From a phage, in the NCBI GenBank assembly GCA_022143435.1, contig GCA_022143435.1_3941.1: DNA of 64,000 nucleotides. One strand, given 5' to 3'. A program made the position numbers and the translations under genes. Positions 2,132 to 48,203 of this stretch are shown here, one piece after another. The number at the start of each line of letters is the position of its first letter. Within the stretch, counting starts at the first letter, position 1. The notes beneath the pieces are model-generated. The model did not search any database. It was not told where the DNA came from and worked only from the letters and a program-made list of their open reading frames with translations.

Positions 2132-4117
2132 TCACTCAGTTTCGAACGGGCAGTCATCTGCATCCTCACTTAATACAGGTGGAATCGTTGAGCTTTGACG
2201 CTGCTCTTCAGTATAGACTTCACCAGTCTCACGGTCAAACACTTCGTCCTCATAATGTGGCAAAGAGTCATCGTAATGGTCTTCAGCTTCACCAATACCA
2301 AACTGCTGGCGAATATTTTCTGCTGCACCATCAATATCAACACCACATCCAGAAGCTTTGATAAGACGTCCTGTATCTGGATTGTACCAAGTATGACCAG
2401 CAATACCTGTTGACTTACCATGACGACGACACTTAGTTAACTTGATTTTTGTCAAGTTTTTCTTAACAGGGTCTGGGTCAACCTTGTTACGCATTAACAG
2501 AATGTTGTTCATAGAAATCTGGAAATACGCACCAGAACCTTTAATATCCTCTTCAGAGATATCTCCACCTTCGGAGTTAGCCTTCTGACCACCTGCACTC
2601 TTACGAACGTGACATACGTTTACCTGCGCATACTGGTAGCGTTTGCAACGACGCAATAGCTCAGATAAAACTTCCTCTTCATCCGTATCTGAACGTGACA
2701 GAGCCAACGTAATAGGGTCAAGAATAATAATCTTACAGTCTAAGCTGTTAACAAGATAGTCAACAAACTCCAGCAAGTTATCTTGGTCAATTGCCCCTTG
2801 ATGGTCAACGATGTGGATACGACGACCTTTAGACAGTTCTGCGTGTGCCTTCTTCAATTCATCCCAATCACGTTCGTCATAAGGAATCTCAGAAATCTGC
2901 TTGCTCAGGTGGATTGCACAGAGCATCTCCATCAACTCTTCATAGGTATCTTCTACAGGAATTACACCAATATTGTAATCGGTATCTTTCCAAGCAGTAT
3001 AAATCATTTCACGAGTGTATGCAGATTTACCCACTGAAGATGGTGCTGCCAGAGTTGTAATCTCACCTAAACCGTAACCACCATAAGTCAGTCTGTTCAA
3101 ATCCCCGAAAGATTCTGGGAAAGGAATCAATGGAATCTGACCACGATTCTTCATTGCCTCAAAACCATCTGCAAAGTTCTTGATACCAGCAGGGCAATAA
3201 CGAGGTGCGTTGTAGATACGCTGCTTAAATCCTTCCAGAACTGTGTCTTTCTCTTTATAGAACTTTGTCCACCATTCGTTAAGGTCTTTTACACCCTCTG
3301 GATACTGGAATAAACGAACCTTCTCGATAGGTAAGATACCAGCAGCCTCTTTGGTAGCTTTAGCACCTGCTTCATCGTTATCAAAGCACAAGTAAATTTC
3401 ATCAAATGATGTGATGTACTGATAGTTATCTTTGATAGACTTGATGTTTGCACCTGATGGAACAGATACGTGACAGTAATTCTTACGACGAGACTTATCT
3501 TTAATCGCCAAAGAAGTCATGTAGATAGCTGTCGCACATTCCATCTCACCTTCCCAGATGAACAGTCGGTTCCCACCTTCTGGAGCAATCCATGAACCGA
3601 ACATTACCAGTTCACCTTTGATATCTCCAACACCACCTGAAAAGTCTTTTAACTTACCACGTAGGTGTTCTTTTGGATGGTCTTCTGGGTAACGGTGACG
3701 AACACGGTAGCCAACATGTTCTAGCTTGCCATCTTCATTACGTTTATAAGTTGGATAGAAATGTGCATCAATTTCACCATCACTATCAATGTCAACCTTG
3801 ATACCTAAACGTTCAAGGACTTTTGCAGGGATTTTCCTGTCTTTCAAGTCCATTGCTTCAAGGTTTTCTTTCACATCGTCTAAATCCATTCCACGGAAAG
3901 TACGGTTTTTATTGTCTGAACCAGTAGAATAAGTGCTCACGATTTGTCCTTTATCAAAATCCCACTCTGGGAAACCTTTGTTACAGCTAAAGCAAGTCAT
4001 CGAATAAGAATCATCGTCATGATGATAGATTGAACCAGCATCTGATGAACCACAACGTGGACATGCACAATGACCAATAAACTGACCAGCCTCTTTCAAT
4101 TTACGACCTTTAGACAT
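2132..4117 (-). CDS. bifunctional DNA primase-helicase (T7 gp4-like)
   Basis: N-terminal Cys4 zinc finger (CACPRCGSS...CFSCNKG), TOPRIM-like FDNDEAG, DnaB-type Walker A (AAPSSVGKSAYT); ATG 4117 preceded by GAGGTG. Confidence 0.9.
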   Translation of the reverse strand: MSKGRKLKEAGQFIGHCACPRCGSSDAGSIYHHDDDSYSMTCFSCNKGFPEWDFDKGQIVSTYSTGSDNKNRTFRGMDLDDVKENLEAMDLKDRKIPAKVLERLGIKVDIDSDGEIDAHFYPTYKRNEDGKLEHVGYRVRHRYPEDHPKEHLRGKLKDFSGGVGDIKGELVMFGSWIAPEGGNRLFIWEGEMECATAIYMTSLAIKDKSRRKNYCHVSVPSGANIKSIKDNYQYITSFDEIYLCFDNDEAGAKATKEAAGILPIEKVRLFQYPEGVKDLNEWWTKFYKEKDTVLEGFKQRIYNAPRYCPAGIKNFADGFEAMKNRGQIPLIPFPESFGDLNRLTYGGYGLGEITTLAAPSSVGKSAYTREMIYTAWKDTDYNIGVIPVEDTYEELMEMLCAIHLSKQISEIPYDERDWDELKKAHAELSKGRRIHIVDHQGAIDQDNLLEFVDYLVNSLDCKIIILDPITLALSRSDTDEEEVLSELLRRCKRYQYAQVNVCHVRKSAGGQKANSEGGDISEEDIKGSGAYFQISMNNILLMRNKVDPDPVKKNLTKIKLTKCRRHGKSTGIAGHTWYNPDTGRLIKASGCGVDIDGAAENIRQQFGIGEAEDHYDDSLPHYEDEVFDRETGEVYTEEQRQSSTIPPVLSEDADDCPFETE

Positions 4118-6605: not shown

Positions 6606-9305
6606 ATGGAAAACGTAGATTTTAAAAACTTACATTTAGTTGGTGATACAGAAACTGATGGTTTACTCCTTGAGTTCACTAAAGTGCACGTAATGGCTTT
6701 CGCAGACTATAAATCTGACGATGAAGAGCCGCCTGTATGGGTCTTTACAGATGAGCCTATCCTCGGTCACAAGTATACCAAGTATATTAAGGGTGGCTTA
6801 CGTGAAGGTATTGAGTTTGCGTTAAAGGCAAAACGTCTTTGCATCCATAACGGTCTCGGTTATGACTGGTGGGTTTTCAATCACATTGCACCTGATTTAT
6901 GGAACTTTGATAATCCAAAGTGTAAACCGTGGAGTAATTTCTTTCAGGATTCTCTTATCCAGTCTCGTGTTCAGTGGATGGATAGACCAACTCCAAAGGG
7001 TTATAAAGGTGCTCATGGTTTGGCTGCATGGGGTGCTCGCGTTGGTGTTCGTAAGCCAGAGATTGAGCATTGGGGTGTGTGGAATGCAGAAATCTTCACT
7101 CGTGTTGTAGAAGATATCCGTATTAACGCCAAAACTAAACGGGCACTTGATAACGAGTATCTCAAGCTTAAGAAGTGTGGTATAGACACTTATGAGACTT
7201 ACATGCGAGCTAAAGAAACATCTTTCTGGATGAGTCAACAGGCTATTAATGGCTGGAAAGCTGATAAAGAGCTTATGGAGTTCCATGTGAAGGAACTTGA
7301 CAAATTGACTAATGAGCTTGCTTCAGAGGTTGAACCACATCTACCTCCAACTATTAAGACCAAAGGTAAAGTCACTGGAGAAGAGTTTGCAAAAGCTTGG
7401 AATGAGTATGTTGAAGCATTCGGTCATGCAGATGGACTGAAGAGAATTACCAAGTACCCTAAGACAAAGTACCGTCAGCAGGTACGTAACGGTGAGATGC
7501 AGACATACGAAATCAAGCCATTTGGTAAGCCAACTACAAAGATTTTTAACATTGAAAAGAGAAATTGCTATACACCAACCAACTCTGTAACTGGTGAAGA
7601 GTACAAGGAAGGTTTTGTAGCAATGAAGGATGCTCGTGCAATTTGCAATGAGTTGAACGCAAAGATTGGTAAGAAATGCAAAGACTGGAAGCCAGTAAAA
7701 ACAGTCAAAACTGTGAAGTACTATAACAGTCATGTTGTTAACCACTTTGAACTTGAGTCAAGTCGCTACACAGGTTTGATTGATGCACCATATACACCAA
7801 TTGAGTTCGAAGTTTCTCGCATGACTCAGGTAGCAGTTGTTAAAGACTACTTGAAATCAGTTGGTTGGATTCCAGATGACTGGAATTACAAGAAAGACTC
7901 AGATGGTCGCCCTGTCAAAGTTTGTCGTTTCAAAGACAATAAAAAGATGATTACAAAGCATCCTAAGTGGCAGGAAATGGTTGAGCGGTGTGGTTTGAAT
8001 TATGTTGAACATGAAGGTGTACAGTACATCGAGCATAACTGGTCTGTGAAGAAATACACAGATTTGCTTGAGCCTTGCTTAATCCGTACTTCACCAAAAC
8101 TTACTGAATCATCTTATGATACGATTGAAGGTGAGCTTGGACAGAAGATTGCTAAGTACTATACTTTGATGCACAGACGCAGAACTATTGAGAACTCAAA
8201 GGATGATGAAAAAGGTTGGTTGAACCAGATTCGTCCTGATGGTCGCCTTAGTGCTGGCGCAATGGTGTTTGGTACTTCAACTGGACGTATGACACAATAT
8301 GGTATTGTAAACGTACCGTCTGGTGCTGCTGTCTATGGGGAACCAATGAGGGCAGTGTGGATTTGTGAGGAAGGTACTAACGTTGTCTCTGTAGATATGA
8401 ACTCAGCCCAGCTAGTTCTTCTTTGTAACTTTATGGGTGATAAAGAGTTCACCAAAGCGGTAACGCAAGGTAAAGAAGAGATTGAGTTTATTCGTCAAGA
8501 AGATGGACGCTATTACTGCAAACATTTTGATGAGTACCTCAACCCAGAGATTGATAAGTACCTTCGCTATGACTCTGAGAATGACCTGTACGTTGTCTAT
8601 TCAGGGACTGATGCACATACACTGAACAGTATCTACTTTAGCTTGAACGATGAGCAGGACATCTTGACTTGTCGAGCTACTCAGGATGAGAATCTTCTTC
8701 ATGAGATTAGCAAAGGTCGTAAGAAAGCTAAGAATGGTATCTATGCACTACTGTTTGGTGCAGGTGATGAGAAGTTTGCTAAAACTATTAAGGCAGCCAC
8801 TACTCAGGAAGGTGCATTAACTAAACAGACTTACTTTGTGCGTTTGCCAAAGATTAAGAAACTATTAGATAACTTGGAAGCTGACTACAAAGCAACTAAA
8901 AAGGCACTTGAAGAGGTGTTTGGTAAGACCGCTGCAATCTCTAAAGGGGGTTTTGTAAAGGTTGCTGGAGCTTGGTTGTGGTGTAAATCTCCACATAAGT
9001 TGTTGAATTATTTGCTCATGGGTTCGGAAAGTCAGATTCAGAACGAGGCAATTAACCTTGCTTGCCGTCGTATGATTGACGAAGGTTTGATGAAGTTGAA
9101 CGGTCGCAAACCAGCTATAGGTGCTCGTTTATTGTGCTCCTATCACGACGAGACAAGTTGGGAATGTCCAGAAAGTATGACGGCAGAGGTGAAGGCTGTC
9201 ACTGATTGGTATTACGGGCAAGCCTCTAAGAACTTAGGACTAAAGAGTGAAACACTGGTAACTGGTACTGGTAAGGTTGGTAAGTCGTGGTTGGAAGTGC
9301 ATTAA
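6606..9305 (+). CDS. DNA polymerase, family A, with 3'-5' exonuclease domain
   Basis: Exo I motif VGDTETDGL; polymerase motif C YHDETSWECP; start moved to ATG 6606 (AGAGGGA RBS) rather than track start 6576. Confidence 0.9.
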   Translation: MENVDFKNLHLVGDTETDGLLLEFTKVHVMAFADYKSDDEEPPVWVFTDEPILGHKYTKYIKGGLREGIEFALKAKRLCIHNGLGYDWWVFNHIAPDLWNFDNPKCKPWSNFFQDSLIQSRVQWMDRPTPKGYKGAHGLAAWGARVGVRKPEIEHWGVWNAEIFTRVVEDIRINAKTKRALDNEYLKLKKCGIDTYETYMRAKETSFWMSQQAINGWKADKELMEFHVKELDKLTNELASEVEPHLPPTIKTKGKVTGEEFAKAWNEYVEAFGHADGLKRITKYPKTKYRQQVRNGEMQTYEIKPFGKPTTKIFNIEKRNCYTPTNSVTGEEYKEGFVAMKDARAICNELNAKIGKKCKDWKPVKTVKTVKYYNSHVVNHFELESSRYTGLIDAPYTPIEFEVSRMTQVAVVKDYLKSVGWIPDDWNYKKDSDGRPVKVCRFKDNKKMITKHPKWQEMVERCGLNYVEHEGVQYIEHNWSVKKYTDLLEPCLIRTSPKLTESSYDTIEGELGQKIAKYYTLMHRRRTIENSKDDEKGWLNQIRPDGRLSAGAMVFGTSTGRMTQYGIVNVPSGAAVYGEPMRAVWICEEGTNVVSVDMNSAQLVLLCNFMGDKEFTKAVTQGKEEIEFIRQEDGRYYCKHFDEYLNPEIDKYLRYDSENDLYVVYSGTDAHTLNSIYFSLNDEQDILTCRATQDENLLHEISKGRKKAKNGIYALLFGAGDEKFAKTIKAATTQEGALTKQTYFVRLPKIKKLLDNLEADYKATKKALEEVFGKTAAISKGGFVKVAGAWLWCKSPHKLLNYLLMGSESQIQNEAINLACRRMIDEGLMKLNGRKPAIGARLLCSYHDETSWECPESMTAEVKAVTDWYYGQASKNLGLKSETLVTGTGKVGKSWLEVH

Positions 9306-10759: not shown

Positions 10760-11859
10760 CAATTCTGTACAAACAAAATAAAGATGGCTCTTTTAACGTC
10801 TGGTCATGCGTTGCTGTAGGTGACAAAGTGGTTACCACGTATGGCAAAGAAAATGGCAAGATGATGTTTGAAGAGTACACAGCAGAACCAAAAAACATCG
10901 GCAAAAAGAATGAGCGTAACGCTGAACAGCAAGCTCTCTTTGAAGTTGCTGCTAAATACAAGAAGCAGGTTGACCGTAAAGGCTATGCTTATTCAAAATC
11001 TGCTGCACAGGAAGTTGAGAAGGTTGGTGTACAGCTTGCACATGATGCTTCCAAGGTTAGTCATGCAAAGTATCTGAAATTCCCTGCTGATGCTCAACCA
11101 AAACTTGACGGTGTTCGTTGCAGGATTTCTCGTCATCAAAGTCTTGGTGGAATGTTTACAGCTTATTCTCGTGAGAATACGGTTTACAACATCCCCGAAG
11201 AATTGATTCCAGATATAACTATGATGCTCAAACTTCATAAAGATGTGGATGAGTTTGACGGTGAGATTTATGCTCATGGTTGGGACTTGGAAGATATTGT
11301 ATCCATGATTAAGAATGCTGACAATCCAGACCGTCACCTACTTAAATTCTACTGGTATGATATCTGCGATAATTCTAAATCTTGGCCTGAGCGTCGTGAA
11401 ATCATTGATAACTCACCAATCGTTGAACTCGGTGATGCTTGCAGGGTTGTACCTGTTCAAACTATCCGTGTTAACTCTTGGGAAGAGTTCGACAAAGCCC
11501 ATGATAATTGGGTTAAGCTGAAGTTTGAAGGGGCTATGTACCGTTCAATCTCTGAAGAATCTTTCTACGAGTGTAGTCACCGTTCATACTTCTTAATCAA
11601 GCATAAGAAGATGCACACTGAAGAGTTTAAAGTAACTGGTGTGAAAACTGATAAACGTGGTCATGGTAAGTTTGTTGTAGAGACTCTTCCTAACGTCTTT
11701 GTAGATGTTTCATGGAAAACTACCCATGAGAAGAAGAAGTATCTTGCTGAACATCCTGAAGAGTTTATCGGGAAACCTTTGACGGTTCAGTTCCAGAAGA
11801 TGACTCGTAGGGGGTCTTTACAGTTCCCTGTTGGGTTAGTTATCAGAGATTATGAATAA
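10756..11859 (+). CDS. DNA ligase, ATP-dependent type
   Basis: Nucleotidyltransferase motif I KLDGVRC; further ligase-like motifs EGAMYRS, LIKHKK. Confidence 0.6.
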   Translation: MTILYKQNKDGSFNVWSCVAVGDKVVTTYGKENGKMMFEEYTAEPKNIGKKNERNAEQQALFEVAAKYKKQVDRKGYAYSKSAAQEVEKVGVQLAHDASKVSHAKYLKFPADAQPKLDGVRCRISRHQSLGGMFTAYSRENTVYNIPEELIPDITMMLKLHKDVDEFDGEIYAHGWDLEDIVSMIKNADNPDRHLLKFYWYDICDNSKSWPERREIIDNSPIVELGDACRVVPVQTIRVNSWEEFDKAHDNWVKLKFEGAMYRSISEESFYECSHRSYFLIKHKKMHTEEFKVTGVKTDKRGHGKFVVETLPNVFVDVSWKTTHEKKKYLAEHPEEFIGKPLTVQFQKMTRRGSLQFPVGLVIRDYE

Positions 11860-12250: not shown

Positions 12251-12856
<606 letters not shown>

Positions 12857-12858
12857 TT

Positions 12859-13299
12859 ATGAATACAAAAGCATTAGCAGCAAAGTTTAGTTACGGTGAC
12901 ACTGTATCACATTCTGAGATGGACACCTTCTTAGGTATTGTGAAGCCAACTTATCAAGGTGACATTGTTAAGTACGAAGATGAAATGAAGGCTTATGCAC
13001 TTACACGTCTAAACCGACTTGAGAAGTTTATTGAAAAGCTTCTTAAAGAAGAGAAGATTTATCTGGTTGCTTCAATGGGTGTTGGTTATCGTGTGGTTGA
13101 ACCTAAGCATCAAGCAACTATTGCAAAACGTAAAATGTCTGGTAAGATTGGTCGTGCTTTAAAGCAAGCCACTCAAGCGATTGAGAATGTGAATACTATG
13201 GCACTTAGTCATCAAGAACGTTCACGACTGATTGAACAGCAAAACCATTTAGCTGCTATGAAAGCTAACATTAACAAGCAACGTAGAAAACCTTTCTAA
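12859..13299 (+). CDS. hypothetical protein
   Basis: 146-aa ORF adjacent to previous gene. Confidence 0.5.
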   Translation: MNTKALAAKFSYGDTVSHSEMDTFLGIVKPTYQGDIVKYEDEMKAYALTRLNRLEKFIEKLLKEEKIYLVASMGVGYRVVEPKHQATIAKRKMSGKIGRALKQATQAIENVNTMALSHQERSRLIEQQNHLAAMKANINKQRRKPF

Positions 13300-40835: not shown

Positions 40836-41036
40836 TTATTCAGAGTCTGTAGCAGTCTCTTCTTTCTTAACTTCGAACTTTGCATCAACAGCGTCAAGAA
40901 GTGCATCCATAGAGGCTTCTTTGATATCAATACCTGTTGCTACAGATAATCTGTCTGCAATTGCCATGATAGTGTTCTGCATAAATTCTAGCTTTTTGTT
41001 AGCTTCATAAAGTTCTTTATAAACGGTCTCGCTCAT
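40836..41036 (-). CDS. hypothetical small protein upstream of terminase
   Basis: 66-aa ORF. Confidence 0.4.
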   Translation of the reverse strand: MSETVYKELYEANKKLEFMQNTIMAIADRLSVATGIDIKEASMDALLDAVDAKFEVKKEETATDSE

Positions 41037-41072
41037 TATGTTTTCTCCAAATAATTAACCATGTTTCTCCTT

Positions 41073-41096
41073 AAAAAAGACGGTACAGAGACCGTC
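41073..41096 (-). terminator. rho-independent terminator (end of tRNA transcription unit)
   Basis: GACGGT-loop-ACCGTC hairpin followed by T6 on the minus strand. Confidence 0.65.
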
Positions 41097-41161
41097 AAGG
41101 AGAAACCACAATGTACGTCAGAGACATACTGTATAAGTCTTCCTATAAAGTATAACTCTGT

Positions 41162-41222
41162 AAAAAAGCCCTGTCTAAAAATACTCTTCGGTAGCGAAAG
41201 GAAGAATACTTATAGCAGGGCA
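41162..41222 (-). terminator. terminator-like hairpin
   Basis: GCCCTG...CAGGGC stem followed by T-run on minus strand, downstream of tRNA-Cys. Confidence 0.5.
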
Positions 41223-41258
41223 TTATTATTATTTTAATTGAGAGAGAGTAAAATAACT

Positions 41259-41334
41259 TGGAGAATCCGAAGGGACTCGAACCCTTATAAACCTGTTTTG
41301 CAGACAGGCACATATCCATTTCTGTCACGGATTC
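41259..41334 (-). tRNA. tRNA-Cys (GCA)
   Basis: Manual cloverleaf; 7-bp acceptor stem; CCA encoded. Confidence 0.65.
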
Positions 41335-41339
41335 AAAAT

Positions 41340-41432
41340 TGGAGGAAGATACCAGACTTGAACTGGTACACCGATTTCTCAGCTACTGGCAGTTTAGCAA
41401 ACTGCTCCCTTACCTTTTAGGGTTAATCTTCC
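41340..41432 (-). tRNA. tRNA-Ser (GCT), class II
   Basis: Long variable arm; anticodon loop TTGCTAA. Confidence 0.6.
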
Positions 41433-41433
41433 A

Positions 41434-42168
41434 TTATTTCTGTAATGCGCTCTTCATTTCTGGTGTTGCAATAGTGTCAATTACACCAGTTTTACAGGCA
41501 TCATCAAACCAGTCTGGTAAGATACCTGCTAAGAACCCATTGATATTCGTTTTAAGGTACTCTGCAATAAGGGCAGCTTCTTCTTCAATCATCTGCACAA
41601 CTTCATCTGCATAAGCTGTAATCTTTGAGATACCTTCATTAATCTTACTGACAGCTTGGTTAGCTAAATCAGAAACAGTATCAAGACCCTTGTCAATAGC
41701 GTCTTGTAAGTCACTTAATACATTGTTAACACTCTCTAGTGTACTGTTAATCATATCAATAGCTTTTTGACCATATTCTGTAGCAACACCCATAATACCA
41801 CTGAACGGTGTACAACCAACTTGTTCTCCTGCTGCACCCATAACATTGGAATATCCCTTTGCTACCTGCATACGTGATGAAAACTCATCAATAGATTTTT
41901 GACCGTAGTCTGTCAGGGTCTTAGTAGTTGCTGTAGTGCTTGTAAGGCTTGTTGTAAAGCTGTTTAGAAGGACTGTTGTAAGTCCAGCAGCAACAAGTTT
42001 CTCCTGCATTGTAGGGTCTGTTACAGAACTAATAGAGCTTACAAGTGATGTAGAAGCAGCTACGGTTCCACCGAGAACTGCTGCACCAGTAATAAGTGGG
42101 TTAGAAAACCCTTTACCGGTTTTTAAGAGATTAAAAATCTCCTTACCTTGTTCTGTCATCTCTTTCAT
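41434..42168 (-). CDS. hypothetical protein embedded in tRNA array
   Basis: Start moved to ATG 42168 (AGGTG upstream) because the track start overlaps tRNA-Phe. Confidence 0.4.
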   Translation of the reverse strand: MKEMTEQGKEIFNLLKTGKGFSNPLITGAAVLGGTVAASTSLVSSISSVTDPTMQEKLVAAGLTTVLLNSFTTSLTSTTATTKTLTDYGQKSIDEFSSRMQVAKGYSNVMGAAGEQVGCTPFSGIMGVATEYGQKAIDMINSTLESVNNVLSDLQDAIDKGLDTVSDLANQAVSKINEGISKITAYADEVVQMIEEEAALIAEYLKTNINGFLAGILPDWFDDACKTGVIDTIATPEMKSALQK

Positions 42169-42184
42169 TAAGCACCTTTGAAAT

Positions 42185-42260
42185 TGGTAGTCCAGTGGGA
42201 TTTGAACCCTCTTCTCATGTTTTTCAGACACGCGCTTTAACCATATAAGCTACTTGGACT
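42185..42260 (-). tRNA. tRNA-Phe (GAA)
   Basis: Manual cloverleaf; anticodon loop CTGAAAA. Confidence 0.6.
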
Positions 42261-42266
42261 ATAAAT

Positions 42267-42342
42267 TGGGGTGACCTACGGGATTTGAACCCGTATAGAC
42301 CATGTTCACAGCATGGGTCATTACCATTTATGATAAGGCCAC
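42267..42342 (-). tRNA. tRNA-His (GTG)
   Basis: Anticodon loop CTGTGAA. Confidence 0.6.
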
Positions 42343-42377
42343 ATTTAAGGACTCTCGTAAGAACCCTTAGAAGTGGC

Positions 42378-42448
42378 AGCGGCATAAGGATTTGAACCTT
42401 AATAGGACAGCTTCAGAGACTGTTGCATTGCCAGTTATGCTATACCGC
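42378..42448 (-). tRNA. tRNA-Gln (CTG)
   Basis: Anticodon loop CTCTGAA; CCA not encoded. Confidence 0.5.
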
Positions 42449-42454
42449 TAAATT

Positions 42455-42533
42455 TGGTACTCCATATCGGATTCGAACCGATACATAACACAGATTTTAA
42501 GTCTGGCCTCTCTGCCAATTGGAGTAATGGAGC
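42455..42533 (-). tRNA. tRNA with anticodon TAA (Leu by anticodon, short variable loop)
   Basis: Good acceptor and T arms; 4-bp anticodon stem; class-I-like length. Confidence 0.45.
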
Positions 42534-42535
42534 AT

Positions 42536-42611
42536 TGGCGGGGGATGTTGGAATTGAACCAACTTCTTCGATTTCAAAGACCGAGGTTTTAACCTTGTAA
42601 ACTAATCCCCT
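42536..42611 (-). tRNA. tRNA-Gln (TTG)
   Basis: Anticodon loop CTTTGAA. Confidence 0.5.
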
Positions 42612-42619
42612 TTAAATCT

Positions 42620-43177
42620 TTACTTTCTTAGTGGATGAATAAAGAATGCCAACATAACTCTTTCCCTTGAGAATGCTCTTTCTTCTGGGACAACACTTTT
42701 TAGCTTCCACCCAATATAAATTCTCCAGTAGAACTGTTTACCAAAGATTTTAATTGATGGGATAAAAGCGAATAATCCCCAAGCATTGCTGTTCCACATT
42801 AGGAGATAACCTGTCTGATTATCTTCAGGGTTAGAACTTACGTTGATATTACCTTTCCACTTAGTAACATCTTTTACATCTCTTCCTAATACATGGTAAG
42901 AGAAGTTATAAGCTTTGTTTCTCCAGAGCCATCCGACTCTTTGCATGTAGACACCTAGTTTACCAATCCATCTAATATTAGCCCATCTTTTAACGTGACC
43001 TTCATCACCATCAATTGGGTTGTCATATGTCTCCATCCATCTGAATCCGAAAGGTAAGTGTCCTTTCTTCTCACTGTAGAATGGAACTACAAAAGGTGCT
43101 AAGATAACTGCTAAGATTGCTGCAAATGGCTCTAACAAAGCTAAGAAAATCCATGAAGCATACTTCAAATATCTCAT
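42620..43177 (-). CDS. membrane protein embedded in tRNA array
   Basis: N-terminal hydrophobic segment WIFLALLEPFAAILAVILAPFVVPF; Trp-rich. Confidence 0.45.
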   Translation of the reverse strand: MRYLKYASWIFLALLEPFAAILAVILAPFVVPFYSEKKGHLPFGFRWMETYDNPIDGDEGHVKRWANIRWIGKLGVYMQRVGWLWRNKAYNFSYHVLGRDVKDVTKWKGNINVSSNPEDNQTGYLLMWNSNAWGLFAFIPSIKIFGKQFYWRIYIGWKLKSVVPEERAFSRERVMLAFFIHPLRK

Positions 43178-43196
43178 CTAAATAGCCTCTTTAAAT

Positions 43197-43272
43197 TGGC
43201 GCAGGATAAGGGATTCGAACCCCTATTAACAGCTTCGTAGACTGTTGCTCTATCCATTTGAACTAATCCTGC
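43197..43272 (-). tRNA. tRNA-Arg (ACG)
   Basis: Anticodon loop CTACGAA. Confidence 0.65.
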
Positions 43273-43277
43273 AAAAT

Positions 43278-43355
43278 TGGTGTTCCAAGACGGATTCGAA
43301 CCGTCACTAGTACAAGGTTTGAGCTTGCATCCTCTGCCAATTGGGATACTGGAAC
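43278..43355 (-). tRNA. tRNA with anticodon CAA (Leu by anticodon, short variable loop)
   Basis: 5-bp anticodon stem, loop CTCAAAC. Confidence 0.45.
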
Positions 43356-43356
43356 A

Positions 43357-43431
43357 TGGTACTCACTAAAGGACTTGAACCTTTTTCTTCATCTTGTAAG
43401 GGTGGTGTTTTACCATATAAACTAAGCGAGT
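43357..43431 (-). tRNA. tRNA-like, anticodon TAC (Val?), weak anticodon stem
   Basis: Good acceptor/D/T arms; anticodon stem has two C-A mismatches. Confidence 0.4.
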
Positions 43432-43527
43432 GTGAAAGAGGTCTGAAGTTGTGCCGCTAACTCAACTCCGTGGAATTTGTTACGGTCTTCAGTTGACTCA
43501 AAGCGGTCTTTCACTTGACCTCTAAAT
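43432..43527 (-). ncRNA. tRNA-sized structured element, not a canonical cloverleaf
   Basis: Perfect 7-bp terminal stem AGAGGTC/GACCTCT enclosing about 73 nt; no standard T-loop. Confidence 0.25.
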
Positions 43528-43603
43528 TGGTGCTCCCACAAGGATTCGAACCCTGATAAGTTGCTTACAAGGCAACCGTAATAGCCAATTATACGATAGG
43601 AGC
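43528..43603 (-). tRNA. tRNA-Thr (TGT)
   Basis: Anticodon loop CTTGTAA. Confidence 0.6.
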
Positions 43604-43610
43604 ATTAATT

Positions 43611-43685
43611 TGGAGCATCCAGAGGGAATCGAACCCTCAACCTCAGTTTGGAAGACTGTAATTTTCCCGTTTAAACTATGGATGC
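43611..43685 (-). tRNA. tRNA-Gly (TCC)
   Basis: Anticodon loop CTTCCAA. Confidence 0.6.
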
Positions 43686-43691
43686 ACTAAT

Positions 43692-43767
43692 TGGTGGAGT
43701 CACTGAGAATTGAACTCAGTTCCCAAGTTTGCAAAACTCGAATTTTAACCATATAAACTATGACCCC
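43692..43767 (-). tRNA. tRNA-Ala (TGC)
   Basis: Anticodon loop TTTGCAA. Confidence 0.6.
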
Positions 43768-43773
43768 ATTTTT

Positions 43774-43849
43774 TGGTACAGGTGGAGGGAATTGAACCCA
43801 TCGTCTTACTGATTAAGAGTCAGCCGCATAACCATTTTGCTACACCTGC
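43774..43849 (-). tRNA. tRNA-Lys (CTT)
   Basis: Anticodon loop CTCTTAA; register slightly ambiguous. Confidence 0.45.
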
Positions 43850-43856
43850 ATTAATT

Positions 43857-43934
43857 TGGTAGGAGACAAGGGATTCGAACCCTCAAACACCAACTTCTAA
43901 GGATGGTAGGTTTACCAATTACCGTCAATCTCCC
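43857..43934 (-). tRNA. tRNA with anticodon TAG (Leu by anticodon)
   Basis: Anticodon loop CTTAGAA, 4/5 stem pairs. Confidence 0.4.
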
Positions 43935-44190
43935 ATTAAATCTTTTTAGAGAACTTCTAAGAACCTAAGCAACAAGGTTCCACAACAAGCTGTAATAACC
44001 TTAGAAGCCCTCTAAAAAGACCTAAAAAGGTCTTTGCATAGTCTTGTTTAATCCGGTGACTAGAACCTTTGGAGAGCTTGATATTATCTCTTCTCCGTGA
44101 CACCTACTAGGTGCTTTACTGTGCGTGTACGACAATACACTAGGGATACCAAAGCAACATCCGAATGAAGCTTGGCTTTAAATCTTATTA

Positions 44191-44269
44191 GGCGGTAAGT
44201 AAAGGAGTCGAACCCTCACCGTATCTCTACAGTGGCAACTGTTTTCAAGACAGTTTGGCTACCATTAGC
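44191..44269 (-). tRNA. tRNA-Ser (TGA), class II
   Basis: Anticodon stem ACTGT/ACAGT, loop CTTGAAA, long variable arm. Confidence 0.55.
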
Positions 44270-44293
44270 CGCTACCTACCCCTAATAAGACTT

Positions 44294-44376
44294 TGGCATG
44301 GGACGGAGGAGTTGAACCCCTTTGAAACGGTTTTGGAGGCCGTTGCTCATGCCTTAGAGTCTTAACATCGCCCCAT
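44294..44376 (-). tRNA. tRNA-like with Trp-type anticodon loop CTCCAAA (CCA)
   Basis: Anticodon arm matches E. coli tRNA-Trp loop; D region about 7 nt too long for a standard cloverleaf. Confidence 0.35.
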
Positions 44377-44518
44377 ACTATAATTCGAAGCTTACCGTAT
44401 TATCTCAACACTGTAAAGCCCCTTCTCAGATTATTTACATGTTCTGGAAAACATGAGATACAGACCACCTCCCTACAGGAAGACCCGCTTAGGTCGTCTA
44501 AGTAATCTGCTAACTAAT

Positions 44519-44595
44519 TGGTACACCCTACAGGATTCGAACCTGTAACTAACGATTTAGAAGACCGTTGCTCTATCCAATTGAACTAAGGGTGC
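44519..44595 (-). tRNA. tRNA-Arg (TCT)
   Basis: Anticodon loop CTTCTAA. Confidence 0.6.
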
Positions 44596-44798
44596 ATTAA
44601 TCTTTAAAGACTCTCTTAGAAAGCCCTTAAAGATGCCCACCTTATTAATCATACCGTGGGCTAGTACGCCAAATTCTTTGATGAGGGATTGGAAGACCTC
44701 ACTGGTGTTTAGCCTATCAAGCTACTGCCAGAAAAACATTGTCGTTTGCATTTATTTTAAATTTGCAAAATAGACGCTACGCAACGAAAACTAAGGTT

Positions 44799-44827
44799 AC
44801 TATAAAGTAGTCACATCTCAATGTCAA
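44799..44827 (-). promoter_or_regulatory. sigma70-like promoter inside tRNA array (TTGACA-N17-TATAGT)
   Basis: Read on minus strand; would drive the tRNAs at lower coordinates. Confidence 0.5.
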
Positions 44828-44842
44828 CAACTTTATTGAAAT

Positions 44843-44917
44843 TGGTTGTAGGTGAGGGTATCGAACCCTCTTCTAACGGTTATCAGCCGTTTGCATTACC
44901 ATTTATGCTAACCCACA
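44843..44917 (-). tRNA. tRNA-Ile (GAT)
   Basis: Anticodon loop CTGATAA. Confidence 0.65.
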
Positions 44918-44919
44918 AT

Positions 44920-44996
44920 TGGAGGTTCAGATGGGAATCGAACCCACATTCATAGGGCTTATGAGACCCTTGCATTACCTTATCTGCGACTGAACC
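44920..44996 (-). tRNA. tRNA-Met (CAT)
   Basis: Anticodon loop CTCATAA. Confidence 0.6.
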
Positions 44997-45000
44997 ATTT

Positions 45001-45076
45001 TGGTAGAAGTGGAGGGATTCGAACCCATCGCCTGTCAGATTAAAAGTCTGCCGCATCACCATTCTGCTACACTTCC
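45001..45076 (-). tRNA. tRNA-Lys (TTT)
   Basis: Anticodon loop CTTTTAA. Confidence 0.55.
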
Positions 45077-45081
45077 ATTAA

Positions 45082-45229
45082 ATTATCTTTGTAGATAAGC
45101 TACCCAGACTTGCTTAAGGTCTGTAGCGATGTGCCTTTTTGGGTTTAAATCTAGAATTTACCCTTTCACCCTTTGTGGTCGCATACTCACAGGTAAGCTT
45201 AATAACTTATCTACAAAGATAATTACCAG
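45082..45229. repeat. 18-bp inverted repeat (ATTATCTTTGTAGATAAG ... CTTATCTACAAAGATAAT) flanking about 110 bp
   Basis: Read directly; inside a tRNA-free gap of the array. Confidence 0.7.
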
Positions 45230-45504
45230 ACCGTTGTTTATCATCTTAAGTGCTACCATTACACCAACTCGACATCTGCCGAGTGAAGGAATCGAACCTT
45301 CGCCTTTTCTTTACCGAGAAATAGATTGTTTAAGTTTTGCTGTAAACGGTCTTCTGTAAATTTGTTGAGCCAGACCAAGTTTTAGATTTTCAAAATTAAA
45401 TTGGCTTGAAATTTCATACGTTCTTGCTGTATTTGGTCTTCTGCTCCTTTAAAGGATACTCGTAAGAACCCTTTAAGGGAGGGGCTAAATAGCCCTCTCA
45501 AAAT

Positions 45505-45583
45505 TGGCGGTTACGAAGGGATTTGAACCCTCATCATCTCCCGTGACAGGGGAGTATTTTAACCAAATTAAACTACATAACCT
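45505..45583 (-). tRNA. tRNA-Asp (GTC)
   Basis: Anticodon stem CTCCC/GGGAG, loop CTGTCAC. Confidence 0.65.
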
Positions 45584-45587
45584 TTAT

Positions 45588-45675
45588 TGGTGTGCCGTGT
45601 AGGAGTCGAACCTACCGAGTCTCAATGACAAGGGATTTACAGTCCCCACCGCTACCATCTACGGGATAACGACAC
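45588..45675 (-). tRNA. tRNA-Tyr (GTA), class II
   Basis: Anticodon loop CTGTAAA with long variable arm. Confidence 0.6.
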
Positions 45676-45684
45676 ATTTAAATT

Positions 45685-45761
45685 TGGCGGTTAGTCAGGG
45701 ATTCGAACCCTGTGCCATTCGCTTAACAGGCTACCGCACATACCTTATGTGCTTCCTAACC
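45685..45761 (-). tRNA. tRNA-Asn (GTT), imperfect anticodon stem
   Basis: Anticodon loop CTGTTAA; good acceptor and T arms. Confidence 0.45.
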
Positions 45762-45838
45762 TTAATACATTGCCAGACCGTGTTTTTTCTTTTATCCGCA
45801 AAAAGTAGTTTGTTGCTGAATACGGTCTTCTGCAAAAT

Positions 45839-45915
45839 TGGAGGCGGGTGCAGGAGTCGAACCTGCCGATACCATGCTAATGAGACATGTGAGACGCCCT
45901 TTCTCTATACCCGCA
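45839..45915 (-). tRNA. tRNA with anticodon CAT (second Met, initiator or Ile-lysidine type)
   Basis: Anticodon loop CTCATTA. Confidence 0.5.
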
Positions 45916-46006
45916 ATTCTTAATGACCAGACCAAATCTCTTCTTTGTCCGATTTCGTGTCAGATGAATAAGATTAAACTTGCTGTAATTGGTCTTCTGT
46001 CAAAAC

Positions 46007-46084
46007 TGGCGTTCCAGAAGGGATTTGAACCCTCAAATATCCACTTTGAAAGAGTGGTGACTTTACCATTTTGTCTACTGGAAC
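46007..46084 (-). tRNA. tRNA-Glu (TTC)
   Basis: Anticodon stem CCACT/AGTGG, loop CTTTCAA. Confidence 0.65.
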
Positions 46085-46091
46085 ATTAATT

Positions 46092-46168
46092 TGGTCTCTG
46101 TTGGAGGACTTGAACCTCCGGCCTTACCGTCCCAAACGGAACGCTCTACCAATCTGAGCTAAACAGAG
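46092..46168 (-). tRNA. tRNA-Pro (TGG)
   Basis: Canonical D arm GCTCAGATTGGTAGAGC; anticodon loop TTTGGGA. Confidence 0.65.
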
Positions 46169-46333
46169 ATAAACTTTTCAAACTCTATGTAACCACTTTA
46201 ACATTATTTTTTAGTGGTTGTCAAGAACTTTTTTAAAATATTTTTCAGTATCTTAGAAAAGCTCTCATTTCGTTTCTATGTAGAACATATTAAAGGGTAT
46301 CAAACACATTGTCAATACCCTTTTTAAAACTTT

Positions 46334-47749
46334 TTACCAGATATAACGGTCAATCATTACTGCTTTGAGCATTACGCTGATTGGGTCAAACTTCTCACCA
46401 CCAAGCAAAGCTTTTAAAGTGGCTGGAGAGAACCCTGATACCATTGCTACACCGTTATCCTTAACAGACACTTCGCAAGTACCATTACGGTTTGCTAAGT
46501 ACCAGAATACCAGTTGTGGCATCTCATATCCAGCTTTCTTGTACTTGCTCTGAATTGCTTCAAAGTTTGTACGACCGTTAGCTCCATCAACCTGATTGAA
46601 CTCCATATCGGAGAAGATGATAAGCTTACTTGGCATATCTTCCTGAGTCAAGTTGTTTCTCTTACCTATCTCAAGAATGCGGTCAAAAGCTGCTTGTAAG
46701 TTGGTTGAGCCATATTCAACGTGTCGCATCACCTGACGATGACGGTTTCGTAAATCACCACTCAGTTCGATGAAGTGAGGGTTTGTTGAATAAACCATCA
46801 ACTCATCCTTAAAGCAACCTGTATTGCGTTCTGCTACATACAAGGCAAGTGATACACCAATATCAAGAGCAGTAATGGAGCCAAAATTCACCCAAGACAT
46901 TGAGCTTGAAACATCAGTCATACATAAGATGTTTTCACCTTCTGCCATCCAGTTTGGTAGTGCTTTCCACTGCTCATTAGCAACATCTGCATTACCATGC
47001 TTGACAGATTTAATCACATCGTATGGGTAAACAGCACCAGCATTAATCTTAGCCTCACCCTTTGATAAGGACTCGATGTAAGCTTTGTAGCGTTCTCCAT
47101 CTTTACGGTTAAACAGTTTTTGGTAACGTGCAGCAGCAAGTGAAGGAATCTTACTGTAGTCAATCTTACCAAACTCATTAGCAGAGATTTTTTGCTCAAC
47201 TGTATCAGATAGTGCAGACAACAGTGTGCGGTACTCTTTCTCACTCAGGTTGGCAAATTTGCAGAAACGTTTTACAAACTGTTTATGACGTGGTTTGACT
47301 CGTGGTAACCACTTAGCTGCCAAACCTGCTGTTGCAGGGTCTAGTAATGCCGCTTCTAAATGTTTGAAGGCATCTGTCTCGAAACGAGTACCTACGAAGA
47401 TTTTGAAGTCATCAAAACGACCAAGTTCTGCAATCTTATCCATAATGCGAAGAACCTGTGTAGGCTCTAAAACTTTATCTTCAATTGCTTGAAGCAAAAC
47501 AGTTCTGAAGGCTTTACGCTCACCCATACCTTCTCGTACATCTCGCATATGAAGCAAAATACGAACTGCAACATCAACATCCTCACGCAAAGCTTTGTAG
47601 AACAAGTCTGGTAAGATTTCTACATTGCTACGGCTCGAACCAGCAGCTTTGTAAAAGTCCACAAGAGCAGACATTGATGAAGTATGGTTTACAGCACCAT
47701 TTTCAGTTCGACCTGCATGAAGGTGCGCATGTTTGAATAATTCGCTCAT
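46334..47749 (-). CDS. vWA-domain protein with about 270-aa helical N-terminal domain
   Basis: MIDAS-type motif NILCMTDVSSSMSW and later LIIFSDMEF; architecture recalls TROVE+vWA (Ro60-like) proteins (inference). Confidence 0.6.
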   Translation of the reverse strand: MSELFKHAHLHAGRTENGAVNHTSSMSALVDFYKAAGSSRSNVEILPDLFYKALREDVDVAVRILLHMRDVREGMGERKAFRTVLLQAIEDKVLEPTQVLRIMDKIAELGRFDDFKIFVGTRFETDAFKHLEAALLDPATAGLAAKWLPRVKPRHKQFVKRFCKFANLSEKEYRTLLSALSDTVEQKISANEFGKIDYSKIPSLAAARYQKLFNRKDGERYKAYIESLSKGEAKINAGAVYPYDVIKSVKHGNADVANEQWKALPNWMAEGENILCMTDVSSSMSWVNFGSITALDIGVSLALYVAERNTGCFKDELMVYSTNPHFIELSGDLRNRHRQVMRHVEYGSTNLQAAFDRILEIGKRNNLTQEDMPSKLIIFSDMEFNQVDGANGRTNFEAIQSKYKKAGYEMPQLVFWYLANRNGTCEVSVKDNGVAMVSGFSPATLKALLGGEKFDPISVMLKAVMIDRYIW

Positions 47750-47831
47750 ATTTTACTCTCTTCTCTCATTTTGTTTGTTGATGTGACAGACTTTAGAGCA
47801 ACTTTGTAGAGTCTGTCAACACCTTTTAAAA

Positions 47832-48203
47832 TTATTTTTTGAGAGTCGCTACAGCAGAGAACGTTGGTTTGTTATCTGTCTGAGACTGACCACCATTATC
47901 AGGGGTCTTCTTAGTGTCTGCTGCAATCGCTTTCATCTCACCTGCTGAGTGAGTCATGATGGTTTTACCAGCCTCCATCATCGACTTCAGGTTTACATCG
48001 TCAGTCGTCAAACCGAACTCTGCAAGCTTAGCAGCATCCCTTGTAACAACCGCCTCAAACAACTTTGCAGCAAACTCAGCAGAATTATCAATGGTCAGTT
48101 GAGCTTTTACAAGTGAGCTTTTGTTACGAGAGCCTTTTGGTCTTCCAGATGGGTTTCCAGACTGGCCTTTTTTAAACTGGCCTTTGTTTGTTCTGTTTTT
48201 CAT
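47832..48203 (-). CDS. hypothetical protein with basic Gly-Pro-rich N-terminus
   Basis: N-terminus KGQFKKGQSGNPSGRPKGSRNK. Confidence 0.45.
   Translation of the reverse strand: MKNRTNKGQFKKGQSGNPSGRPKGSRNKSSLVKAQLTIDNSAEFAAKLFEAVVTRDAAKLAEFGLTTDDVNLKSMMEAGKTIMTHSAGEMKAIAADTKKTPDNGGQSQTDNKPTFSAVATLKK

Follow-up and report, generated by a model that had tools for sequence, protein, structure and literature searches.

The question raised by this locus is whether a phage gene beside a tRNA array encodes a Ro60-type protein and, if so, which neighbouring RNAs might be its partners. The window analysed is a 64,000-nucleotide stretch of phage DNA (contig GCA_022143435.1_3941.1), in which the gene (46334..47749, minus strand; 471 aa from an ATG start) is followed by 26 tRNA genes on the same strand (41259..46168, called by ARAGORN with Rfam tRNA matches). 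An earlier note, made from the letters of the sequence, had proposed that the protein and several odd elements of the array form a ribonucleoprotein (RNP) resembling Ro60 with its Y RNAs. The core of that proposal is supported, as the protein has a Ro60 fold in its predicted model and four structured RNA elements, E1 to E4, embedded in the array, belong to a family linked to the gene. It is rather probable that E1-E4 are partner RNAs which a Ro60-type protein would bind by a shared terminal structure, the handle, in an RNP serving surveillance or counter-defence. This reading draws on four observations: the fold of the protein, the RNA family, the covariation of its structure and its strand-specific linkage to the gene.

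The open reading frame (ORF) and the von Willebrand A (vWA) signature noticed earlier, DVSSSMS (aa 279-285) and LIIFSDMEF (aa 376-384), proved sound. The vWA domain spans codons 272-455 (46385..46936, minus strand; PF25043, E 5e-44; VWA_2, E 7e-4). Its MIDAS (metal ion-dependent adhesion site) motif, DxSxS..T..D, is complete because all five residues, D279, S281 and S283 (nt 46901-46915, minus strand) with T349 and D381, are unchanged in 50 of 50 homologues, in an alignment reaching down to 40% identity. The protein matches PF11443 (DUF2828; 104 bits, cut-off 29) and PF25043 (DUF7788, a vWA domain; 151 bits, cut-off 27), and over its full length PHROG 850, 'RNA-binding protein' (E 6e-184); a search of NCBIfam with the 471-aa protein gave no match. 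The 5.3 kb around the gene are 96-98% identical to many Felixounavirus genomes (for example, LF82P3, LinBro and JH2), in which the gene is annotated as 'RNA-binding protein', 'vWFA protein' or 'hypothetical'.

The relationship to Ro60 emerged from structure. AlphaFold2, given the alignment of 50 sequences, produced a confident model (predicted local distance difference test score, pLDDT, 89.4; predicted template modelling score, pTM, 0.89) that contains only helices to about aa 263, which agrees with the helical sequence noted before the vWA domain, and then an alpha/beta vWA fold. According to DSSP on the model, codons 1-265 (46955..47749, minus strand) form the all-helical part, a predicted TROVE-like ring of HEAT repeats. 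When the model was compared with the PDB by Foldseek, the best 11 matches were all full-length Ro60 (E 8e-8 to 2e-6), with Xenopus and human Ro60, Deinococcus Rsr and the Ro60 of Thermus phage phiLo among the top matches and TM-scores to Ro60 proteins of 0.5-0.67. Ro60 1yvp_A aligned over 394 residues, well beyond the vWA domain alone, and lone vWA domains ranked after the Ro60 proteins (E ~1e-2). Because full-length Ro60 ranks above isolated vWA domains, the N-terminal domain is TROVE-like in its modelled fold, although not detectably by sequence. A single-sequence search of PDB chains gave no match; a family profile gave a marginal one (E 0.57) among PDB sequences, to the vWA/MIDAS segment of Ro60 and to no other vWA protein. 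With a helical-repeat ring joined to a C-terminal vWA domain in the model, and with the MIDAS motif DxSxS...T...D characteristic of the family, the predicted structure is that of a Ro60-type ring protein from a divergent, DUF2828 branch.

The idea of a Ro60-like protein has already been published for the orthologous gene, gp130 of Bas63 (Escherichia phage JohannRWettstein, Felixounavirus), whose structure is called Ro60-like in the PhageMaP preprint (PMC11482910). Deletion of gp130 makes Bas63 sensitive to Ppl, and its expression rescues T7: gp130 alone, from a plasmid or inserted in T7, restores plaquing of T7 on Ppl (PMC11482910). As gp130 alone suffices in T7, the anti-Ppl phenotype does not need the RNAs of Bas63. 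The gene (bas63_0130, MZ501086) encodes 471 aa, lies directly before tRNA-Pro and specifies a protein 97% identical to that of the window. The family is widespread; tblastn found it in 710 of 50,697 deposited phage records, including Yersinia phage P778 (54% protein identity), KVP40-like Vibrio phages (46%) and Campylobacter phages (36%), as well as phages of Aeromonas, Cronobacter, Sinorhizobium, Ralstonia and Synechococcus. It is present at 33% identity in 75-kb cluster-L-like mycobacteriophages, where it is annotated 'Ro-like RNA binding protein', and at 29% in phages of Bacillus, Staphylococcus, Enterococcus and Listeria. Hundreds of phages keep the ring domain at full length.

Candidate partner RNAs were found in spacers of the tRNA array, 330-1110 nt downstream of the gene and on its (minus) strand, as four copies of a motif pair, CAGAAGACC(N3)(U/A)CAGCAA ... 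GGUCUGG. E1 (45924-46002, minus strand; UGAC-AGA-AGACCAA-UUA-CAGCAA ... UUGGUCU-G-GUCA) fills the spacer between tRNA-Glu and tRNA-Met, and E2 (45770-45835, minus strand; UUGC-AGA-AGACCGU-AUU-CAGCAA ... ACGGUCU-G-GCAA) fills that between tRNA-Met and tRNA-Asn. E3 (45367-45446, minus strand; GAGC-AGA-AGACCAA-AUA-CAGCAA ... UUGGUCU-G-GCUC) is, like these, a short form, and E4 (45223-45359, minus strand; UUAC-AGA-AGACCGU-UUA-CAGCAA ... ACGGUCU-G-GUAA) is a long form with a permuted tRNA-like domain. Exact CAGAAGACC occurs six times in the 64 kb, four of them within 45226-45999 (minus strand), and all four minus-strand GGUCUGG sites of 45226-45999 belong to the same stretch. Since each fills a whole spacer between tRNAs, E1 and E2 could be released by ordinary tRNA 5' and 3' processing.

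The handle consists of the two ends, paired as a 7-bp helix, and an invariant CAGCAA that follows the 5' strand after 3 nt; an A-rich run precedes the 3' strand. In the Felix clade an internal loop, AGA/G, and an outer stem of 4 bp lengthen the helix. Its inner 2 bp and the 4 bp of the outer stem vary between the four copies yet remain complementary (flanks GAC/GUC, UGC/GCA, AGC/GCU and UAC/GUA; inner pairs AA/UU versus GU/AC). The opposite phasing, GGUCUGG...CAGAAGACC around each tRNA as an insert, was tried; its flanks fail to pair, and it was rejected because the covarying flanks pair only as CAGAAGACC...GGUCUGG.

None of E1-E4 was called as a tRNA by ARAGORN (default or relaxed) or by the Rfam tRNA model, and the only addition by relaxed ARAGORN was an aberrant tRNA-Trp-like element. 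Rfam scans of 17 related loci at the gathering threshold returned only tRNAs. A relaxed scan of 41000-46400 gave no handle copies beyond E1-E4; its leftovers were isolated, and the sole one with an exact CAGCAA lies inside a DUF7338 ORF. ARAGORN leaves the array gaps that the earlier note had pointed to, and the note's suspicion of Y-like RNAs near the array was right for one element: the tRNA-like motifs at 45250-45300 are the core of E4. The other regions that it flagged (43432-43527, 43940-44190 and 44596-44842) are not Y-like by the criteria applied here, and its list omitted E1-E3, which lie in other spacers.

Association of the handle with the gene was measured in 75 diverse viral loci from IMG/VR, found via the protein (39-48% identity), by a strict scanner (7-bp helix with ≤ 1 G.U, 3-nt spacer, exact CAGCAA, partner 15-200 nt downstream). 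The gene strand had 92 matches and the opposite strand 19, and 50 of the 75 loci were positive; at ≤ 300 nt from the gene 38 elements were on the same strand and none on the other. Independently of the scanner's selection, 61 of the 138 same-strand CAGCAA sites lying outside the gene but ≤ 1 kb from it had a perfect 7-nt partner, compared with 7 for reversed 7-mers, 5 for shuffled 7-mers and 7 of 43 sites on the opposite strand. The result was replicated in a second set of 80 loci from bacterial genomes and metagenome-assembled genomes, mostly of Clostridia and probably prophages or phage contigs, in which 131 of 218 sites were paired (controls 12-16; opposite strand 4 of 37); 58 of these loci had at least one element, and the arrays held as many as six.

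From 80 non-redundant elements with 57 distinct helices, the consensus of the handle is (A/U)G(G/A)N(U)NN - N U (A/U) - CAGCAA ... A-rich ... NN(A)N(Y)C(U/A) - G. A mini-alignment of 61 sequences has double substitutions at 7 of 7 pairs (177 of 427 cells) and a covariation score of 1.05 (0.21 when shuffled, ≤ 0.16 in slid registers), but it was selected by the scanner and is paired by construction, so the unbiased support is given by the two site tests (61/138 and 131/218).

Searching from the RNA side led to the same gene. A scan of IMG/VR for the E2-type interior (CAGCAAC..AACU..UUGCGGAUAA) gave six contigs, two of them Felix-like and four of 76-78 kb encoding a Ro-like protein 31-34% identical to the query, as it is in the mycobacteriophage records; in all six a DUF2828 gene ends 78-520 nt upstream on the same strand.

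LinBro, Moogle, SUSP2, Sf16 and Bas63 each have the complete set of four elements, and E1 is kept in Ounavirinae with a G.U variant. Changes between these relatives preserve pairing: AGACC becomes AGGCC or AGACU via G.U, the outer stem GCUC becomes GUUC, and the outer stem of E3 stays paired through G.U in Moogle and Sf16. E2-E4 are overlapped by small 'hypothetical' coding sequences (CDSs) in the annotations of Bas63 and LinBro, several of which run on the other strand; these include bas63_0137 (12749-12901 of locus L090, opposite strand), which overlaps a pair of elements, and LinBro CDS0139-0141 (locus L001). They are probably mis-annotations, and their knock-outs in genome-wide screens would really hit the RNAs.

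More distant phages keep the handle in other settings. Yersinia phage P778 has the layout of the window, with UGC-ACA-GGACUGU-UUA-CAGCAA...ACAGUCC-A-GCA, a copy with GGAUUC...GAAUCC and a T-arm-bearing copy with GGACUC...GAGUCC. Campylobacter phage CPX has two elements between tRNA-Tyr and the start of the gene, and Listeria phage AG20 has three immediately upstream of it. Mycobacteriophage LilDestine carries three (UGGACGC.., UGGACUC.. and UGGUCAC..) right after the gene, with no tRNA within 13 kb, and the middle one has a complete T / acceptor-like / D domain. In all four phages the sequence of the 7-bp helix differs and is always compensated, CAGCAA follows 3 nt on and the elements are on the gene strand. 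In AG20 (locus L009, 5959-12521) a 17-tRNA array precedes the Ro-like gene, which is followed on the same strand by genes for an HD phosphohydrolase, RtcB ('tRNA splicing ligase'), a 'tRNA amidotransferase' and an RNA ligase. On five Clostridia-type contigs (L159, L160, L158, L172 and L176) tandem arrays of five to six handle RNAs, with single tRNAs in between and the clade-specific helix start AAAGRYRC in common, lie upstream of the Ro-like gene.

The interiors fall into short and long forms. Short forms (46-68 nt) have A-rich interiors and a small hairpin. The long form E4 contains a tRNA-like core (45249..45301, minus strand) to which positions 43-63 of the Rfam tRNA model match locally, this match covering only the T arm. 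Its arms follow in the order V hairpin, T arm (45285-45301, minus strand; GAAGG-UUCGAUU-CCUUC), acceptor-like hairpin (45267-45284, minus strand; ACUCGGC-AGAU-GUCGAGU) and D arm with a GG loop (45249-45265, minus strand; GGUG-UAAUGGUAG-CACU). The acceptor-like hairpin covaries in relatives (ACUCG/CGAGU, ACACG/CGUGU and ACCCUUC/GAAGGGU, the last with loop GCCAAACA).

Among elements flagged for a T-loop motif, 16 long forms had their arms parsed by script because MAFFT misaligned their 3' ends. The 16 come from different phages, and in at least 11 of them the T, acceptor-like and D arms follow in this order and their stems covary: the T stem has 5 bp and a UUCRANY loop, the acceptor-like stem has 6-8 bp, all compensated, and after U(A) comes a D stem of 3-4 bp that closes a GG loop. 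The acceptor-like loop often starts NCCA in relatives, which would fit, but does not prove, tRNA-type modification of the E4 type and a role as a substrate of RNase P or the CCA enzyme.

Certain interiors recur. The E2 interior, CAGCAAC.AACU..UUGCGGAUAA.AAGAAAA, is common to Felix-type phages of E. coli and cluster-L-like mycobacteriophages, whose Ro-like proteins are ~33% identical, and further interiors recur too, for example ...CCUUUCUGGAGGGGAAAGCAAAAACUCGCC... in five loci. The conserved E2-type interior was seen at 45770-45835 of the window, at 7448-7497 of locus L008 and in L091-L094; its CAGCAA is able to pair with UUGCGG, and elements of Listeria phages have a comparable ...AUUGGAUAAAA. 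Some handles enclose a sequence that the Rfam model scores as a complete, non-permuted tRNA (L047 3734-3833, tRNA 3753-3824; L158 2665-2773, tRNA 2689-2761), suggesting that the handle may also be grafted onto ordinary tRNA-like bodies.

A mechanism may be proposed as follows. Encoded in the tRNA operon downstream of the gene, on the same strand, E1-E4 would be cut out during processing of the flanking tRNAs. The handle, a 7-bp helix with single-stranded CAGCAA, would be the binding site of the Ro-like protein, taking the role of the Y RNA stem, and the variable interior would serve as an adaptor or decoy module. With its T arm, acceptor-like hairpin and D arm, the E4 module may mimic the elbow of a tRNA, as bacterial YrlA does, and, because of this mimicry, could engage tRNA-recognising host or defence factors. 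The RNP would then act in RNA surveillance or counter-defence during infection, and the role of the RNAs may be that of a regulator, an adaptor for other targets or a decoy.

Several points weigh against this interpretation. Expression and processing of E1-E4, their binding by the protein and recruitment by the interior modules are inferences from sequence. The claim of a Ro60/TROVE-like protein stands by fold and fails in Pfam, which assigns DUF2828/DUF7788 and gives no match to TROVE (PF05731) at E ≤ 1. The covariance-model check that the earlier note had called for found no match to Rfam Y_RNA or YrlA, either across 8 kb at E ≤ 1 or in 261 nt at E ≤ 10, and the whole of Rfam yielded nothing there except tRNAs and chance matches; the handle lacks the known Ro60-binding motifs (animal GGUCCGA; YrlA GNCGAAN0-1G). 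Single-sequence fold energies of E1-E4 are uninformative, being only weakly better than those of shuffles (z -0.9 to -2.4, the last for E2), the strict scanner found no match in 25 of the 75 viral and 22 of the 80 genomic loci, and the covariation alignment carries the selection described above. Finally, the one known phenotype, against Ppl, is independent of E1-E4, given that gp130 alone suffices.

The alternative that survives best, which we nevertheless judge unlikely, is that the handle RNAs are real and the Ro-like protein is not their partner. They might be processing or stability signals of tRNA-type operons, cis-regulatory leaders or trailers of the DUF2828 mRNA, or ligands of another host or phage factor, and their linkage to the gene would reflect a shared 'RNA region' of the genome. 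Many elements do lie ≤ 300 nt upstream or downstream of the gene, a typical distance for an untranslated region (UTR), tRNAs are often interleaved with them, and gp130 is active against Ppl without them. Against it, the position of the elements varies, from upstream of the gene in Listeria and Campylobacter phages to downstream in the mycobacteriophage, and in the window the elements lie beyond two promoter matches and two tRNAs from the gene. Tandem arrays of two to six elements with differing interiors, tRNA mimics among them, would be atypical of a UTR switch; LilDestine has elements but no tRNA in 13 kb; and the RNA-first search always led to the gene.

It is less probable still that the protein is a pure protein-level inhibitor (for example, of Ppl bound at the MIDAS), its Ro60 fold being a leftover with no RNA ligand and E1-E4 being unrelated tRNA-derived RNAs. 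Such an inhibitor would be consistent with the activity of gp130 alone and its transfer to T7, and vWA/MIDAS domains are classic modules of protein-protein interaction, but it would leave unexplained the full-length conservation of the helical ring across hundreds of phages and the strict, strand-specific tie to one RNA family across phyla. An origin of the elements as decaying pseudogenes of tRNAs, or as inverted repeats arisen by chance where spacers are AT-rich, is strongly disfavoured and very improbable: the tRNA-like arms of E4, the weak fold z-scores and the 4-8 chance matches of a loose scanner per 128 kb of shuffled sequence might suggest it, but the CAGCAA spacing is invariant, 57 distinct, fully compensated helices occur among 80 elements, pairing was seen at 61 of 138 sites and at 5-7 in the scrambled controls, and the elements are kept from phages of Enterobacteria to mycobacteriophages.

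The remainder of the region provides the context for the gene and for E1-E4 as its putative partner RNAs. The gene ends 165 nt from tRNA-Pro (ARAGORN, 46092-46168, minus strand), as had been noted. Consensus matches to sigma-70 promoters on the minus strand lie upstream of the gene (47790..47819; TTGACA-18-TAAAGT, 10/12) and, twice, between the gene and tRNA-Pro (46315-46287, TTGACA-17-TAATAT; 46224-46195, TTGACA-18-TAAAGT). The latter pair (46195..46315) is the likely start of a transcript of tRNAs and E-RNAs. The best such match of the region (44799-44827, minus strand; TTGACA-17-TATAGT, 11/12) lies in the gap between tRNA-Arg and tRNA-Ile, and this promoter-like site inside the array suggests more than one transcription unit.

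Genes for DUF7217 (41434-42231, 265 aa) and DUF7338 (42620-43177, 185 aa) proteins are inside the array, and a DUF5681 gene (47832-48203, 123 aa) lies upstream of the Ro-like gene, all on the minus strand; the DUF5681 gene is a conserved upstream neighbour in all Ounavirinae loci and P778. As regards the flagged regions outside E4, 43432-43527 (minus strand) is a 96-nt spacer between tRNA-Thr and tRNA-Val that forms a stable multi-branched hairpin (-29.9 kcal/mol, z -3.6), nearly invariant across Ounavirinae and with a remnant CUGAAGACCGU, and contains neither CAGCAA nor a matching 3' strand. The gap 43940-44190 contains a small ORF and the gap 44596-44842 the strong promoter-like site.

The aberrant tRNA-Trp-like element (44298-44375, minus strand) reads CUCCAAA in its anticodon loop and GCCA after an acceptor stem of 7 bp; its T arm is normal, and its D region is unusual and lengthened (GAUGUUAAGAC...). 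Only the -mt mode of ARAGORN called it; default ARAGORN and Rfam missed it. Trp is the sole amino acid without a tRNA among the 26 called by ARAGORN, and a similar sequence is present in P778 (locus L002, gap 11141-11517). Between tRNA-Asp and E3 (45447-45504, minus strand) are two hairpins, GAGAGGGC..GCCCCUC and CCUUAAAGGG..CCUUUAAAGG, and in relatives the stem of the second is maintained by a paired substitution, G>A / C>U. The two may act as a terminator or a processing site, or belong to an E3 precursor of greater length. Between tRNA-Asn and tRNA-Tyr, SUSP2 and Sf16 have ~60 additional nt (GAUUUGGGAGAGAAGC..UGCUCACCGAUUUGUAAGGUGCAAGUCCUUAGCC...), which the window lacks.

More tentatively, DUF2828 Ro-like proteins and CAGCAA-handle RNAs may form a large, overlooked class of phage RNPs in which one protein uses interchangeable RNA adaptors, a possibility that we take seriously without yet favouring it. 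Such a class would span myo- and siphophages of Proteobacteria, Firmicutes, Actinobacteria, Campylobacterota, Bacteroidota, Chloroflexota and others. Its adaptors (tRNA mimics, several larger modules and the E2-type module, which is deeply conserved) would decoy or tether different host RNA-processing or immune factors, and, if this is true, tRNA-array regions would in many phages serve as arsenals of Y-like RNAs as well.

Particles of Ro60 and Y RNA are long studied in RNA surveillance, although their function is murky, and phage versions have newly been tied to counter-defence. Partner RNAs of the anti-defence family member were previously sought among tRNAs; a precise set of candidates makes the mechanism accessible to experiment. 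The CAGCAA handle defines an RNA family that Rfam and similar databases could take up as new, and mis-annotated 'hypothetical proteins' in tRNA spacers are flagged. As far as is known, what is new here is the identification of four elements of a widespread, covariation-supported and gene-linked RNA family that includes YrlA-like tRNA mimics; no description of CAGCAA-handle RNAs was found in the searchable literature, which lacks most subscription journals.

How does this system compare with known ones? The closest, gp130 of Bas63, is an orthologue at 97% identity in the same place upstream of tRNA-Pro. Its authors guessed that 'some tRNA genes are possibly Y RNAs' (PMC11482910), whereas the partner candidates here are four spacer elements and not annotated tRNAs. 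With the Ro60-Y RNA systems of animals and Deinococcus (Rsr-Yrn1, RYPER) the window protein shares a ring and a vWA/MIDAS domain, and E1-E4 share with Y RNAs paired ends forming a stem, the protein-binding part in known systems, and a variable interior. The stem is bulged as in Y RNA, 3 nt opposite 1 nt (AGA opposite G), in the Felix/P778 clade only. Ro60 itself binds Y RNA at the outside of its ring and takes up the ends of misfolded RNAs in the hole at the centre. In contrast, identity to Ro60 is ~13%, Pfam TROVE does not match and the protein has 471 aa rather than ~530. CAGCAA 3 nt after a 7-bp helix replaces GGUCCGA with its bulged C, and the metazoan helix GGUCCGA/UUGACC differs from the handle in sequence and strand arrangement.

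YrlA (Salmonella rsr-yrlBA-rtcBA) is defined by its V / T arm / acceptor-like stem-loop / D order, and its 5' motif GNCGAAN0-1G is the presumed Rsr-binding site (PMC4201824). The same permuted order closed by a terminal stem, with T loop and D-loop GG, is found in E4 and, apart from it, in at least 10 of 15 other long forms; like YrlA, these are ≤ 4 kb from a Ro-like gene on the same strand and have shorter Y-like RNAs alongside. They differ in having (N)U(A/U)CAGCAA in place of the 5' GNCGAAN0-1G, in being invisible to the Rfam models and in their putative partner, which is of another Pfam family. RtcB and RNA ligase beside the Ro-like gene of Listeria phage AG20 echo the bacterial rsr-yrlA-rtcB operon (PMC7790460).

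In their setting, E1-E4 are also like other small non-tRNA RNAs of a phage tRNA operon. The tRNA cluster of phage T4 encodes stable small non-tRNA RNAs, 'species 1' and 'species 2', which are released by tRNA-type processing; we know of no link between these and a Ro-like protein.

Among phages, phiRo60 of Thermus phage phiLo is a canonical TROVE protein with RNAs Yrl1 and Yrl2 bearing a CGAA motif, and its RNA binding and recruitment of PNPase have been demonstrated (PMC12135203), whereas both would be putative in the DUF2828 class. Other phage Ro60 systems (mycobacteriophage ET08 and, reportedly covered by Chen et al. (2014), further mycobacteriophages, CcrColossus and Bacillus phage G) are canonical TROVE proteins with (GN)CGAA RNAs, and Chen et al. 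searched TROVE-annotated genomes only (PMC4201824). Three differences thus set the present system apart from known phage Ro60 systems: the DUF2828 protein, the RNA handle and the absence of the RNAs from Rfam 15. The combination of a common handle with varied interiors is the design principle of the Y RNAs.

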